From IMG/VR virus record IMGVR_UViG_3300029120_000055: a DNA stretch of 17,260 bases, one strand, 5' to 3'. Both the position numbers and the translations under genes were made by a program. Positions 6,298 through 10,497 of this stretch are shown piece after piece (positions within the stretch are counted from its first letter, which is position 1; every line of letters begins with the position of its first letter). A model generated the notes under the pieces. The model was not told where the DNA came from and made no database searches. It saw only the letters and a program-made list of their open reading frames with translations. The stretch comes from a virus.

Positions 6298-6585
6298 TCA
6301 ATGATAGGCAGGTGTTTTCTGACGGTGCAGAAGTGACTCGACACGAGAAATCTGATCGTCCAATTCCTGTTTGGTCACACGCTTTGTCGCATCCTGTCCA
6401 GTAAGCGTAACATCCTTGCCGTAGATACCATTAAGCGCCATGACTCGGCTGAGTTCGCGCTGAAGATACGAGACATACATCATCTGGGCGAGCGTTCTCA
6501 CGACCAGCTTATCGACATTACCGGAGAACTCGCCAGTGCCAGGGTCGTCCGTTGTGTTACGTTGAACTAACAGTAACTTACTGCT
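6298..6585 (-). CDS. Putative 3' exon of the IStron-interrupted tape-measure-like gene (maximal open frame; the true 5' end would be the 3' splice site)
   Basis: The frame of ORF 6298..6501 stays open upstream to 6585, directly after a TGA at 6586-6588. Neither the GTG at 6501 nor the ATG ATG at 6483-6478 has a Shine-Dalgarno sequence. The frame begins inside the right end of the TnpB element. Confidence 0.5.
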   Translation of the reverse strand, partial: SSKLLLVQRNTTDDPGTGEFSGNVDKLVVRTLAQMMYVSYLQRELSRVMALNGIYGKDVTLTGQDATKRVTKQELDDQISRVESLLHRQKTPAYH

Positions 6586-6780
6586 TCACAGCGTCCCCGT
6601 TCGTCGTGACTACTTGGGTTTGTTTGACGCTCCACAGCTTGAAGGCGCAACGACGCCTTGAGGTTGTAACCCCTCTGCATTTTAGGCTACATACCTGCTT
6701 AGATTGATAGCGGCATTGTAGTCGCGGTCTATCTCCGCGCCACATTCTGCACACACGTATACTCTATCCCTGAGCCTCAA
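6545..6780 (-). ncRNA. Putative TnpB omega-RNA (reRNA) scaffold plus guide at the element's right end
   Basis: In IS200/IS605 TnpB systems the omega RNA spans the tnpB 3' end and the right end. Downstream of the tnpB stop (6682) the minus strand is non-coding and structured. AAGGCG/CGCCTT forms a hairpin at about 6660-6643. AGCGTC pairs with GACGCT at about 6631-6590. CAGTAAGTTACTG is a palindrome at 6583-6571. The boundaries are not determined. Confidence 0.5.
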
Positions 6781-7821
6781 GTCGTGCTTAATCGCACCAC
6801 AGCAAGAACAAGTCTTGCTGCTTGGATAAAACCTATCCACCTGAACAAACTCAATTCCGTTCCATTCGCACTTATACTGCATCTGTCTAATGAACTCCGC
6901 AAAACACTGCTCCTGAATTGCTTTGCTAAGATGACGATTTTTCATCATTCCAATTACATTCAGGTCTTCCATCACCACTCTTTTCGGGAGCAGTGACACA
7001 AGATCATGCGTCGTTTGGTGGATGTAGTTCGTGCGAATGTTGGTCATTCGTGCATACATCTTTTTGAGACGTTCTTCACTTCGCATTATGTTGTTCGTCT
7101 TGACAAACGTATTTCCTTTACGATTTTGCTCATACTTTCTGGAAATACTGCGCTTTAGATGCCGCATCTGTCTTTCAAGACGCTTCATCTTTGACGTTTT
7201 GTTGATATTGCGATATGTGATCTTCGTCCCATTAAATTCCGCTATTGCTAAGTCTTTTACTCCTAAATCTATACCCATTGAAATATCCGTCAGCACAGGC
7301 GCTTGGTTCTCGCTCTCCATACCGAAAGATAATATCCATTTGCCATTTACATTTGAAATTCGCGGATTCGTAAACTTGTTCCCTTTACCTTGCGGTAGGT
7401 CAAAATCTGTTTTGTATTTGACCATTCCAACTTTCGCTACATGAACCGTATTCCCGTTTTTGAAATACATATCATCTGCTCTTACAGGGTAATTCGGTTT
7501 ATTATGCTTGCGGCTCTTGAATTTCGGAAAACGCGCAATCTTCTTGAAGAAACCTTTATACGCTTTATCAAGATCACGACAAACAACGCCTAAAGACGCA
7601 TTCGACACTTCGCATAACCACTCATGCTCTCCGTCTTTCTTCAACGGCGTCAGAAGTTTTATCATATCAAATGCAGACAAACGCTTCTCGCCATTCGCGT
7701 ATTGTTCTTCCTGATACGCAAGCATATAGTTCCAAATGTATCGGCAAGCTCCGATGTGTTTCCACATTAGAGCTTCTTGCTCTTTCGTCGGGTATAGTCT
7801 TATCTTGTAAGACTTAATCAT
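6682..7821 (-). CDS. tnpB: TnpB (IS200/IS605-family OrfB, RNA-guided RuvC nuclease), apparently intact
   Basis: The N-terminus is the typical MIKSYKIRLYPTKEQEALMWKHIGACRYIWNY. RuvC-I Asp is in MGIDLGVKDLA and RuvC-II Glu is in RVVMEDLNVIG. The zinc ribbon is CSCCG...CAECG and RuvC-III Asp is in IDRDYNAAINL. The RBS AAGGGAGGTG precedes the ATG at 7821. Confidence 0.93.
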   Translation of the reverse strand: MIKSYKIRLYPTKEQEALMWKHIGACRYIWNYMLAYQEEQYANGEKRLSAFDMIKLLTPLKKDGEHEWLCEVSNASLGVVCRDLDKAYKGFFKKIARFPKFKSRKHNKPNYPVRADDMYFKNGNTVHVAKVGMVKYKTDFDLPQGKGNKFTNPRISNVNGKWILSFGMESENQAPVLTDISMGIDLGVKDLAIAEFNGTKITYRNINKTSKMKRLERQMRHLKRSISRKYEQNRKGNTFVKTNNIMRSEERLKKMYARMTNIRTNYIHQTTHDLVSLLPKRVVMEDLNVIGMMKNRHLSKAIQEQCFAEFIRQMQYKCEWNGIEFVQVDRFYPSSKTCSCCGAIKHDLRLRDRVYVCAECGAEIDRDYNAAINLSRYVA

Positions 7822-7829
7822 CGTTGCAC

Positions 7830-7983: not shown

Positions 7984-8012
7984 ATATTACCTTCTTTTTC
8001 CTTCTTTGTCAA
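7984..8012 (-). promoter_or_regulatory. Sigma70-like promoter motif inside the intron, upstream of tnpB
   Basis: The minus strand reads TTGACA (8012-8007), a 17-nt spacer, then TAATAT (7989-7984). It lies between the R and S elements in the P8-region insertion. This is a motif match only. Confidence 0.35.
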
Positions 8013-8292
8013 GAGGTAATTTGAGATTTCTTGATGGGATGCCCACCACTTCGGACGGCCTATCGCTTGCCGTCCTACTCCCTTCCGGGATAGTCGTTGA
8101 ACCTTCCTCTCTTCGAGGCTTGGCTGCTGATTGCCCATTATTCTAGCGTTTAGGTTTTAACCTTGCGCCATGCAACCGCTTCTTTCTACTTTCGTTGCCA
8201 TCACGCTTAGAGTTATTCACTCTTACGTTGTGGCGCGGTTGCCTTTAGGGTGTCCCAGCATTTCAATGGGTTTCTATTTTTCGAACATATTC

Positions 8293-10497
8293 CTATGAAC
8301 GTGACCTGCATTTACAAGCCACTATGTTTCCAGTATTGATACGATACTCAGCGACTTCCTTGGAAATTTGCCCCTCGCCATCGCCAACATTTTGTGCAAT
8401 TTCGAGTTCGGCCTGAGCAAACGCCATTTGGCCTTCAAGAGATGCTTTCTTAGCCTGAAGGTCTGCAATCTCCGCATCAATGGCCGCATTAACCTGTTCT
8501 TGTTTGCCGCTGATAAACGCATCAACGACGCCCTGATTCAACGTCACCTGACCATCAGCGGATACGGTTGCATTCGCAAGAATCTCAGGATACGCCTCAG
8601 CAAACTCACGCGCCTTGTCGGCAGAAATTGTGAAGCTGTCCGCGACTGTATTCTGAATCGACGCGATTTGCTCAAGTACGCCAGAGCATGTGTCAAAAGT
8701 GCTTAGGATGCCAGACCACGGGCTTGGCATATTATTCAACAACCGGTTATTCTCAGCAATCGCCGCATTGTTCTTTGCGATTTCGGCTGTGTAGTCCGAA
8801 ATCGCAAGAGTGCTGCGTTTATCATTGGCATTTTGCAGGTTATCAATATGCTTTTGAAGTTCATTATTGGATGCCTCAAGCGCAGCAGTTTCTTCTCTAA
8901 TGGCATCTGCCTCAGCCTTATTCGCAGCATCAATAGACGTAGACGATGCCTCGCTCATCACATCCTTGACGGTGGACATGGCAGCGCTGAAGGAGTCAGT
9001 CGCGTTCGTTGCATTTTGAGCCGCATCGGCATATTGCGGGAAGGTCTGATTGGCCACTTCAGTCAGATATTGCTTATACTGATCTGACGCACCCGCCATG
9101 TTGTTGATAGACGCGATAAAGGAATCGAACGTCTCTTGAGAATTGACCGTCATTTCCTTGAGCATATCAGATATTTTAATGACAGCATCATTCTGCATCT
9201 GATTTGCAACCGCCGAATTATACTCATCAACGATACTTTGATAGAGATCAATTTTACTCTGGATGTCATTCAAGAGCTGAGAGTTCTCGTTCTCATCCGA
9301 GCTACGCCATTCATCCGAACTTAAAAGCGTATCTTGAATTTCTTTATAGATATCGACCATACCGGCCGCATCTTTGTTCATTGCCGCCCAGCTCACGTCA
9401 ATCTTGTTGTTGACATCCAGTAGAGCGCTACCAGAATAACTAGCTTCTTTAAGTGCCTTGTTCAGAGCCTTGCTATTTGCAAGCTCGATATCCGCTCCCA
9501 TAGAATACGGGTTGTCAATCGTTTTAGTGCCAGTGCCCTCAGTAAGAGCACCTTGCTTGTACTTGTTTGTGGCGCTTTCTACCTTCGTCTGAAGCGCATT
9601 CGCATTCTGTTTTGCCTGTTCAGCAGAGATATTTTTGAGCTTGGAAACCTCGTCATCTAACTTGCCATTCACAAGGTCAAGGTTGTTTGCCTGAGAGCCA
9701 ACCAACTCTGTGATCTGGTCTTGGATGCTTCGGGCTTGCTCACGAGAAGACGAATCAAAATCACCGGCAGAAGCAAGTTTGCTGTACTGCGCAATGAGGT
9801 CGTTCAGTTGTTCGCGCTGATCGTTCGCGGCACTAGCAACGTCATTGACCTTTTGCTCGTTTTCCTCAGCAGCCTGTTTTGCTTTTTCTTGAGCATTGCG
9901 AATCGCATTGATACCAACAGAGGCAATCGTTGTGATGGCGGAAATGATTGCCACAGGACTGCTGATGAAGTTCTTTGCAGCAGCCTTAACAGCAAGTGTC
10001 ATATTGCCAGCCCATTCTTTAAGAGAGGAGGAATGACTTCTGGTAGCCAATTCTGCCGCAATTTGTTTCTGTTGTTGTTTTGACAGCGACTTGCCAAAAT
10101 CAGACGCGGCAATTCTCGCTTCTATTTCGGCCTGAGCATACTTTTTGTCAGCCTCAATACCAAGTTGTTGAGCGACAGTAGCCTTGTCAAGATTGTACTT
10201 TTTGGCGACGAAAGCTATTTTTTGCTCGTTTGTGCTACGAATTGACTCAAGATTAGCCAAGACATTATCGCGTTCTTTGTCTGTGAGCGCGGCCGTGCTA
10301 AGTAATAAGCGCTGTTGCTCTGCGGACAAGCCAGCCACAGCAGCAGTATATTCATTTACCTTAGCAGCATCAACCTCGTTAACAACAGACCCGGCAACAG
10401 CCGTTCCGCCAGAAACATTCGGCGTCTTATCCGCGTATTCGTTATTAAGTGCCTCTATTTGCGACTTCGCATTTTTTAATACTTTAAGTGATGCCAA
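8293..10497 (-). CDS. Tape-measure-like coiled-coil tail protein (middle segment); the last 8-9 codons and the stop are supplied by the intron
   Basis: The 734-aa frame is rich in Ala, Gln, Glu and Asn and looks like a coiled coil. It has a hydrophobic segment, FISSPVAIISAITTIASVGINAI. The frame opens immediately after in-frame TAA-TGA (10503-10498) with a TTG. There is no ATG before codon 166 and no Shine-Dalgarno sequence upstream. The tail ...NIVA-CKCRSRS* runs into the P1 region of the intron. Confidence 0.75.
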   Translation of the reverse strand: MASLKVLKNAKSQIEALNNEYADKTPNVSGGTAVAGSVVNEVDAAKVNEYTAAVAGLSAEQQRLLLSTAALTDKERDNVLANLESIRSTNEQKIAFVAKKYNLDKATVAQQLGIEADKKYAQAEIEARIAASDFGKSLSKQQQKQIAAELATRSHSSSLKEWAGNMTLAVKAAAKNFISSPVAIISAITTIASVGINAIRNAQEKAKQAAEENEQKVNDVASAANDQREQLNDLIAQYSKLASAGDFDSSSREQARSIQDQITELVGSQANNLDLVNGKLDDEVSKLKNISAEQAKQNANALQTKVESATNKYKQGALTEGTGTKTIDNPYSMGADIELANSKALNKALKEASYSGSALLDVNNKIDVSWAAMNKDAAGMVDIYKEIQDTLLSSDEWRSSDENENSQLLNDIQSKIDLYQSIVDEYNSAVANQMQNDAVIKISDMLKEMTVNSQETFDSFIASINNMAGASDQYKQYLTEVANQTFPQYADAAQNATNATDSFSAAMSTVKDVMSEASSTSIDAANKAEADAIREETAALEASNNELQKHIDNLQNANDKRSTLAISDYTAEIAKNNAAIAENNRLLNNMPSPWSGILSTFDTCSGVLEQIASIQNTVADSFTISADKAREFAEAYPEILANATVSADGQVTLNQGVVDAFISGKQEQVNAAIDAEIADLQAKKASLEGQMAFAQAELEIAQNVGDGEGQISKEVAEYRINTGNIVACKCRSRS

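Follow-up and report, generated by a model that had tools for sequence, protein, structure and literature searches.

A TnpB-carrying IStron without TnpA in a phage tape-measure gene, with a foreign right flank that probably stems from assembly collapse

The IMG/VR virus record IMGVR_UViG_3300029120_000055, a 17,260-nt stretch of DNA that we refer to as the window, carries on its minus strand an IStron of 1768 nt (8316..6549), composed of a group I ribozyme, tnpB and a RAGATH-18 scaffold and inserted in the sense direction of a phage tape-measure gene. The first descriptions of IStrons date from 2000. Very probably, this one is a non-autonomous element that interrupts the tape-measure gene, and the sequence to its right in the window is a foreign flank brought there by a collapse in assembly; we take the real host genome to be that of an SPbeta-like human-gut phage, with Clostridia/Oscillospiraceae as candidate hosts. 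An earlier note, made from the letters of the window, had recognized a sense-oriented IStron in a tape-measure-like gene, and this identification stands, while its view of where the element ends and of what follows it has to be replaced.

The 5′ splice site falls after U8317 and the last base of the element is G6549, because empty alleles and long contigs carrying both exons agree on these positions. The complete 1768-nt element lies between ...ATAGTGGCT and CAAGCACTC... in three long contigs (73, 78, and 110 kb), and the full copies in L007 and L009, on viral contigs of 73–78 kb, are 99.1% identical. In ten near-identical contigs (L043–L052, 98% protein identity) the same tape-measure site is empty and reads AACATAATGGCT followed by CAAGCACTCATTGACAACGG, so that ...ATGGCT runs directly into CAAGCACTC... 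These empty alleles were found by a protein-based search; a degenerate pattern, ATHGTNGCT, missed them, since they read ATAATGGCT. From end to end the element runs UGUAAAUGC...AACACAACGG, a delimitation that rests on full copies, 3′ flanks and empty sites together, and its 3′ terminus is CGG.

At the right end (6549..6577, minus strand), a terminal hairpin pairing GUUAC with GUAAC is followed by ACAACGG, and the same layout of a hairpin plus AYAACGG closes five related IStrons. G6549 is the terminal G of the group I intron, past which four different flanks diverge: those of the first tape-measure site, a second tape-measure site (L016), a 137-aa-type gene, and a YomX-like gene (L015). By this divergence, the boundaries G6577, G6571, and G6550 put forward in the earlier note are not the true ones. 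G6577, the base after the RAGATH-18 match ending at 6578, is ruled out on these grounds, as is G6550, for which the window's own empty YomX-like site, GGAT followed by ACGAGG, also counts. Boundaries in the style of IS607, with the element starting after GG and CT or AT counted as part of it, would shift the frame at three sites and conflict with the empty alleles.

The 5′ part of the element is a group I ribozyme. A covariance search with RF00028 (Intron_gpI), as suggested in the earlier note, gave a match at 7895..8326 on the minus strand that covers the full model (1–253) with 79.7 bits (Rfam, gathering score 50; E = 3.4e-19); the match takes in 10 exon bases, and the ribozyme core spans 7895..8316. 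Two additional hairpins between P7 and P3′ are arranged as in subgroup IA2. The Rfam alignment pairs UGCUGG with UCAGCA in P4 and GACUAU with AUAGUC in P7, and agrees with these helices and with the P1 wobbles as they had been drawn before. P1 (8301..8322) pairs GUGGCUUGU (8322–8314) with the internal guide GCAGGUCAC (8309–8301), the exon supplying GUGGCU (8322–8317) and the intron UGU, with wobbles at U8317.G8306, the splice-site wobble, and U8314.G8309. The same ribozyme match lies at the 5′ end of the copies in L007, L013, and L021 (Rfam). Besides tnpB the element holds a single other open reading frame (ORF), of 99 aa (7839..8138), which has no family match.

The tnpB gene (6682..7821, minus strand) is intact, encodes 379 aa and belongs to the IS607 clade. 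Its Pfam matches are HTH_OrfB_IS605, OrfB_IS605, and the Cas12f1-like TNB domain (PF12323, PF01385, PF07282), its closest solved relative is PDB 8IAZ, to which it aligns end to end (E 3e-73; ISDra2 TnpB, ~1e-39), and that alignment recovers the motifs GIDLG, EDLNV, and DRDYNAA together with a CxxC..CxxC zinc ribbon, so that the RuvC D-E-D residues and zinc ribbon read in the letters are retained. The structured non-coding RNA expected past tnpB is also present: 133 nt, including a RAGATH-18 match at 6578..6638 on the minus strand (RF03064, 57 bits, gathering score 44.9). RAGATH-18 is the guide-RNA core of IS607-clade TnpBs (PMC11061315), and here it would form the core of the TnpB guide-RNA (reRNA or omega RNA) scaffold; from the match to the end of the element there are 29 nt only. 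Copies of the element diverge by up to 8% in nucleotides, and all keep tnpB and RAGATH-18. No ORF for TnpA, the serine recombinase, was found in any 1.77-kb copy, nor in the relatives L024 and L025, and this absence may have arisen secondarily, by loss. The five closest TnpB relatives (53–69% identity, on bacterial metagenome-assembled genome (MAG) contigs) have the same three-part layout, likewise without TnpA, and the two that were checked interrupt phage-type genes, for a DnaB-like helicase and an endolysin. More distant relatives (at most 51% identity) are plain TnpB plus RAGATH-18 elements without an intron.

Around the tnpB ORF we also observed a candidate 12-bp GC-rich long-range helix (7833–7822 with 6653–6642, minus strand) that would enclose the whole gene, pairing its ribosome-binding site (GGAGGUGCAACG) with sequence just past its stop. 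L024 and L026 preserve the helix through changes in both of its strands. Its 3′ arm has an alternative local hairpin beside RAGATH-18, and the data do not discriminate between the two; the alternative pairings may act as a switch between an intron fold and a guide-RNA fold.

The interrupted gene encodes a very long tape measure. The 734-aa ORF (8293..10497, minus strand) ends ...INTGNIVACKCRSRS*, with the exon's frame running on into the intron to ...CKCRSRS and the stop at 8293, as had been described; it aligns to positions 954–1457 of PHROG 4211 and has no Pfam match. Upstream, a 1025-aa ORF (13591..16668) carries a PhageMin_Tail domain and covers PHROG 4211 positions 349–952. Because the two are consecutive PHROG 4211 segments, the 734-aa ORF is the middle piece of a very long tape measure, and these matches give the earlier label of tape-measure-like its basis. 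As the 5′ exon of the IStron, this middle segment comprises 727 codons (8317..10497, minus strand), its junction set by empty alleles and long contigs, and ends ...AAC ATA GTG GCU at U8317. A YomN-like gene lies upstream of the tape measure, and in L001 a Dit-like gene lies downstream, which agrees with the usual place of a tape measure between a tail chaperone-like and a distal tail protein gene.

The true second exon lies outside the window. L001 matches the window with 100% identity over 7862 to 6549, beyond which it continues with QALIDNGVQEADAWRLAAAAMAQNTEEF... for ~943 aa up to the Dit-like gene, and the same exon is present in L007, L009, and L014. Uninterrupted relatives read ...GNAVA-QAMIDAGVDEATAFKLAAAAMAQNAEEF, and relatives of the 5′ flank run past ...EYRINAGNAVA into QAMIDAGVDEATAF..., which is unrelated to the window's 3′ flank. 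Removing the element restores the frame at the tape-measure site, as seen with exon 2 of L001, L007, and L009 and in the empty alleles L043–L052. The window's own flanks, when joined at the true boundaries, are out of frame and meet a stop after 17 codons, whereas the join to the L001 flank is open. The earlier proposal that splicing restores a longer protein thus stands for a splice after U8317 to the true exon 2 and fails for the window's own flank. In the predicted splicing reaction, the internal guide GGUCAC would pair with the exon end, with U8317.G8306 marking the 5′ splice site, and ...GUG GCU would be joined to CAA GCA CUC..., giving the ligated junction ...AUAGUGGCU followed by CAAGCACUC and a spliced tape measure of ~2,650 aa in total, ~943 aa of these past the element. 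Megablast and tblastn searches of the region against 50,697 GenBank phage records gave no matches.

What follows the element in the window is the 3′ part of a separate structural gene of ~130 aa (137 aa in relatives; 6298..6548, minus strand), as stand-alone homologues, an intact gene and the gene order all indicate. The flank starts mid-codon (T, then AC GAC CCT...), and the frame 6576..6298 has no start-codon context, as had been noted. In a search with the joined exons, this flank (6576..6298) matched only stand-alone proteins of ~137 aa, and the homologues P0006, P0013, and P0014 have ~60 N-terminal residues without a counterpart in the window. The intact, unoccupied gene (...DLGY followed by DPDTGEF...) is found in L090 and L091, which are long contigs carrying the tape-measure copy. 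Related SPbeta-like phages have their genes in the order 137-aa gene, YomX, YomW, tube, ..., PhoH, YomN, and tape measure, and in intact genomes the ~130-aa gene lies 15.4 kb upstream of the tape measure. On the minus strand of the window, the order is YomN-like gene, tape measure, element, 3′ half of the 137-aa-type gene, YomX-like gene, ..., PhoH, so that past the element it jumps back to genes normally upstream of the tape measure. Judged by its sequence relatives, window 6298..6576 is not a tape-measure exon. At the second copy, in the ~130-aa gene, the ligated junction would read ...CUUGGCU followed by ACGACCCUG.

A different join in this phage group is seen in P0018, a 187-aa protein from a public assembly in which a YonD_N-type N-terminus is fused to the C-terminal 60 aa of a 137-aa-type protein. 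The fusion, ...GTLDE followed by MYVSYLQRELS..., is not at an IStron junction and probably arose as one more chimeric join or by recombination within the group; the YonD-like gene is itself an IStron insertion site (L022).

The foreign flank finds an explanation in how the record was assembled. The window is an assembly circle of 17,161 bp with a 99-nt terminal direct overlap (1..99, identical to 17162..17260), and a MEGAHIT k127 contig from the same study, L002, has the same circle, beginning at 6675 and ending at 6658. These ends are as expected from a shared graph node at 6784..6549, the last 236 nt of the element on the minus strand, which are identical in the tape-measure copy and the ~130-aa-gene copy; counted from the 3′ end, the first differences from the window copy that all copies in the 137-aa-type gene have in common are at 237, 242, and 272 nt. 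In the 110-kb contig, L091, the two sites lie 15,380 nt apart, while the window without the element comes to 15,393 nt, and the window is collinear with this contig across its own ends. Each long contig has one copy with the other site empty, and the tape-measure site is empty in a 114-kb contig that carries the 137-aa-gene copy (L013 and L045). As the assembly part of the explanation that we consider very probable, the assembler would have switched copies via the final 236 nt, identical in both, falsely circularizing the 15.4-kb interval to 17.2 kb. The window would then mix two strains or, with lower probability, derive from a single genome holding both copies. Such a false circular genome, in which two 1.8-kb intron copies close 15.4 kb from a phage genome of 110 kb or more to 17 kb, matters for its users: catalogues reading a terminal overlap as completeness would mislabel it, and gene callers would fuse or truncate two structural genes in it.

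Two other accounts of the window were weighed against this collapse. The earlier note had read 6576..6298 as the tape-measure 3′ exon, with splicing from U8317 or U8314 to G6577, G6571, or G6550 restoring the tail protein. Several such joins are in frame, and the downstream frame lacks a start codon of its own; we nevertheless consider this account almost certainly wrong, since homologues place the 734-aa ORF and ORF 6298..6501 in separate genes, the downstream frame being the C-terminal part of a stand-alone protein whose gene precedes the tape measure in intact genomes. Tape-measure homologues continue past ...GNxVA with unrelated sequence, the window's join at the real end, G6549, is out of frame, and the empty-site alleles refute the pairing in themselves. 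The window could alternatively be a real molecule: recombination between direct-repeat IStron copies in one phage genome would have released a circle made of the 15.4-kb interval and one copy, or the junction would belong to a genome that is tandem or defective. The same circle in two assemblies (the window and L002), a linear version in IMG/VR contig _102299 and the ability of 1.8-kb direct repeats to recombine speak for it, but L002 stops at the 236-nt shared node in the manner of a graph tangle, with no closed circle at k = 127, the long contigs have one copy each with the other site empty, and the circle would lack replication, packaging, and most structural genes. We regard such a molecule as improbable.

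Some points weigh against our preferred explanation, a non-autonomous IStron with a collapsed right flank. A two-strain mixture looks the same in these data as one two-copy genome, and a real recombination product between the two copies stays formally admissible. Splicing and TnpB cleavage are predicted from the sequence and from experiments on other IStrons (PMC4227781, PMC10690162). The guide-RNA function is not certain, because the scaffold has 29 nt from RAGATH-18 to the right end against 64 nt in the characterized ISFba1 reRNA, and because the putative target-adjacent motif (TAM), TGGCT, is unlike the tested IS607 TAMs AGGAG, GAGGG, and TGGG. The tape-measure copy lacks a 20-nt left-end hairpin and may thus have lost its mobility as DNA.

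Across strains, the element occupies at least six sites in structural genes. Besides the four 3′ flanks, further 5′ junctions lie in a YonD-like gene (L022) and in L019. Where the 5′ flank was recovered, at five sites, the exon ends in TGGCT (three sites), CGGAT, or TGACT; the 5′ flank of the sixth, the second tape-measure site, was not recovered. This exon motif pairs with the internal guide GGUCA(C) at four of the five known sites. Exons end in GGCU or GGAU, and the U is exonic at three sites, as judged by empty alleles and the reading frame. Empty sites show no target duplication, and the 3′ flanks are not conserved. The window itself contains an unoccupied target, CGGAU (6232..6236, minus strand), in its YomX-like gene (aatagcggat followed by ACGAGG, at 6232/6231), a site that is occupied in L015.

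In those copies outside the tape measure for which the left end could be retrieved, the P1 loop holds an additional 20-nt hairpin that contains GUAACAC. It is present at the 5′ junctions in L013, L021, L022, and L023 (e.g. gaccttggct followed by TAGATGTAACACACGATACGTGTTGCAAT, to be compared with window 8316..8300), and GUAACAC recurs at the right end (CGUAACACAACGG); the tape-measure copy does not have the left-end hairpin. The hairpin may be where a transposase binds, a site then lost from the tape-measure copy.

Occupied and empty alleles co-exist among near-identical genomes at no fewer than two of the at least six sites, and intron-less alleles, which the earlier note had thought of as potential TnpB targets, do exist in close relatives. 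The empty alleles retain the motif and a perfect 20-nt target. Comparison of the occupied allele (window 8317..8470) with empty ones (L052, L045, L043) shows 7 differences in the ~150 nt upstream of the site, 4 in the next 350 nt upstream, and 2 in 500 nt downstream; against the nearest empty allele, L052, mismatches in successive 50-nt blocks number 3, 3, 1, 0, 0, 1, 0, 0, 2, and 1 upstream and 0, 0, 0, 0, 1, 0, 0, 1, 0, and 0 downstream. This upstream cluster, a weak signal, resembles a co-conversion tract. One of the changes, A to G at 8322 in the occupied allele, adds a base pair to P1.

How the element moves can be read in two ways. Its transcript would have two fates, either folding as a ribozyme and splicing, or having its 3′ part bound by TnpB as guide RNA. 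TnpB with the scaffold and ~20 nt of the 3′ flank would then cut element-free alleles, recognizing TGGCT followed by CAAGCACTCATTGACAACGG, and repair from the occupied genome would copy the element into the cut allele of a co-infecting phage, while new sites would need TnpA in trans or some other route, for example reverse splicing. It is possible, although we hold the idea only tentatively, that a TnpA-less IStron spreads in this way between co-infecting gut phages by homing with TnpB and its guide RNA, occasionally retargeting to TGGCT-like sites in structural genes. Taken as a whole this homing scenario, which would see in the presence/absence polymorphism at at least six sites, the intact empty targets, and the co-conversion-like tract homing caught in nature, is likewise more doubtful than not. 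The element might instead be a decaying passenger whose ribozyme still splices, as viability would demand, with TnpB and guide inactive and its sites inherited from old TnpA transposition or reverse splicing. The missing TnpA, the short 3′ scaffold, and the left-end hairpin lost in the tape-measure copy would all fit, and the target motif, being complementary to the internal guide, is one that reverse splicing would select as well. Against decay, tnpB is intact with its catalytic residues in all copies despite 8% nucleotide divergence, RAGATH-18 is kept in all relatives, the motif and the perfect 20-nt target are kept in empty alleles, and the differences between occupied and empty alleles cluster, co-conversion-like, within 150 nt of the site. 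We judge the decaying passenger unlikely.

The same tape-measure gene is interrupted a second time, by ~3.1 kb with approximate boundaries at 10498..13652 (minus strand), as located by alignment of relatives; this interruption is not part of the IStron. The gap between the 1025-aa and 734-aa ORFs is present in all close relatives (2.9–3.9 kb), with cargo that is partly swapped, whereas distant relatives read through, ...GLIRFSNTLKSVNTT... against ...VQFIRS and ASLKVLKNAK... in the window. At CG(T/C)TCT followed by GTGGGTAGACCC (~13653/13652), the alignment turns from third-codon variation to near-invariance. The RNA of ~450 nt at the 5′ end of the interruption is conserved and strongly folded (z = −5.7 for the fold), with compensatory changes in hairpins, the exon end UUCGUUCU can pair with GGAACGAG ~95 nt downstream, and the last ~120 nt before the 734-aa ORF's TTG, which has no ribosome-binding site, are almost invariant. 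Its ORFs encode 84 aa (12788..13042), a membrane-like protein of 346 aa without a family match (11582..12622) and, on the strand opposite to the gene, a zinc-ribbon protein of 243 aa (10571..11302). Three Rfam scans for a group I intron in 13720..13150, one taking in the whole window at E ≤ 1 and two narrower ones at E ≤ 10, returned neither this nor any other Rfam family there, and a group II reading, made by eye from a GUGGG start and a domain V-like hairpin, had no Rfam support. The interruption may be an unrecognized intron with cargo genes, in which case the ligated junction would be ...UUCGUUCU followed by GCAUCACUU, or the tape measure may be made as two proteins. That the gene carries a second, 3.1-kb self-splicing element with swappable cargo genes is thus a possibility.

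Other introns were seen in this lineage and its surroundings. L003 has an ORF-less group I intron (19361..19739, Rfam 52.7 bits) directly past a 918-aa tape-measure ORF, at a different position in the gene, and the tape-measure genes of this lineage collect introns repeatedly. A second group I intron (7900..8260, 69.6 bits) directly follows a 416-aa DNA-polymerase ORF in L024, the MAG contig whose DnaB-like helicase gene holds a related IStron. In the tail-gene region of L016, a related viral contig, there is a skipping-rope RNA (10708..10787, RF02924, 71 bits). A weak PrrB_RsmZ match in the window (2806..2908, 21.7 bits, E 0.2) was treated as chance.

The earlier note's suggestion that a TnpB-carrying intron in a phage tape-measure gene was not known to be described goes too far: a survey reports IStrons in the C. 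botulinum phages c-st and D-1873, as well as copies whose sole ORF is ORF B (PMC4227781), and TnpB-only IStrons are known to a 2026 review as well (PMC13565253). The survey divides IStrons into two groups, group A of IS605 type, whose target is T-rich with U as its last base and whose 3′ end is TCAG, and group B of IS607 type, inserted after GG, with an exon ending in G and a CGG 3′ end (PMC4227781). Group B members (BcISt1 of Bacillus cereus; CboIStron/CbISt of C. botulinum and phages c-st and D-1873) have the same order of 5′ group I intron, tnpB, and 3′ scaffold (PMC4227781, PMC10690162), and share with the present element the CGG end, GG in the target, sense orientation in protein genes, including those of phages, and an IS607-clade TnpB. 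Unlike them, the element has a 5′ exon ending in U after GG(C/A)U, with a canonical U.G, rather than in G directly after GG; it lacks the serine recombinase TnpA, and it has no long AU-rich inverted repeat around its ORF, only the candidate 12-bp GC-rich helix. With CdISt1 of Clostridioides difficile, in group A, it shares a five-base U-ending target that pairs with the internal guide in P1, an IA2-looking ribozyme, and the lack of TnpA, which is common in group A copies. It differs from group A in that its target TGGCT is not T-rich (TTGAT, ATTAT, TTTAT), its 3′ end is CGG and not TCAG, and its putative guide RNA, of the RAGATH-18 type, lies clear of the tnpB coding sequence. As read from these sequence features, the element mixes the groups, its 3′ end, TnpB, and guide RNA being group B- or IS607-like and its U-ending five-base target group A-like, a combination that bears on how target motif, internal guide, and TAM co-evolve.

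Outside the IStrons, the ISFba1-type IS607 TnpB (PMC11061315; PDB 8IAZ) aligns end to end and likewise has RAGATH-18 just 3′ of the gene, but the present element is fused to a group I intron, has 29 nt from RAGATH-18 to the guide position against 64 nt, and has TGGCT as its putative TAM against AGGAG or GAGGG. Phage group I introns with homing endonucleases (T4 td, Twort, and those of the SPO1/SPbeta group) also place a self-splicing intron in an essential phage gene, splicing here being predicted, and also show presence/absence polymorphism in close relatives and a possible co-conversion tract. Unlike theirs, the putative nuclease here, TnpB, is RNA-guided, and one element would therefore be able to occupy many unrelated sites sharing only a 5-nt motif. 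Homing by TnpB-only IStrons is regarded as plausible but untested in the 2026 review (PMC13565253), and this element offers a natural test bed for it; among IStrons already described, phage-borne and TnpB-only ones included, it adds a small twist in the target rules.

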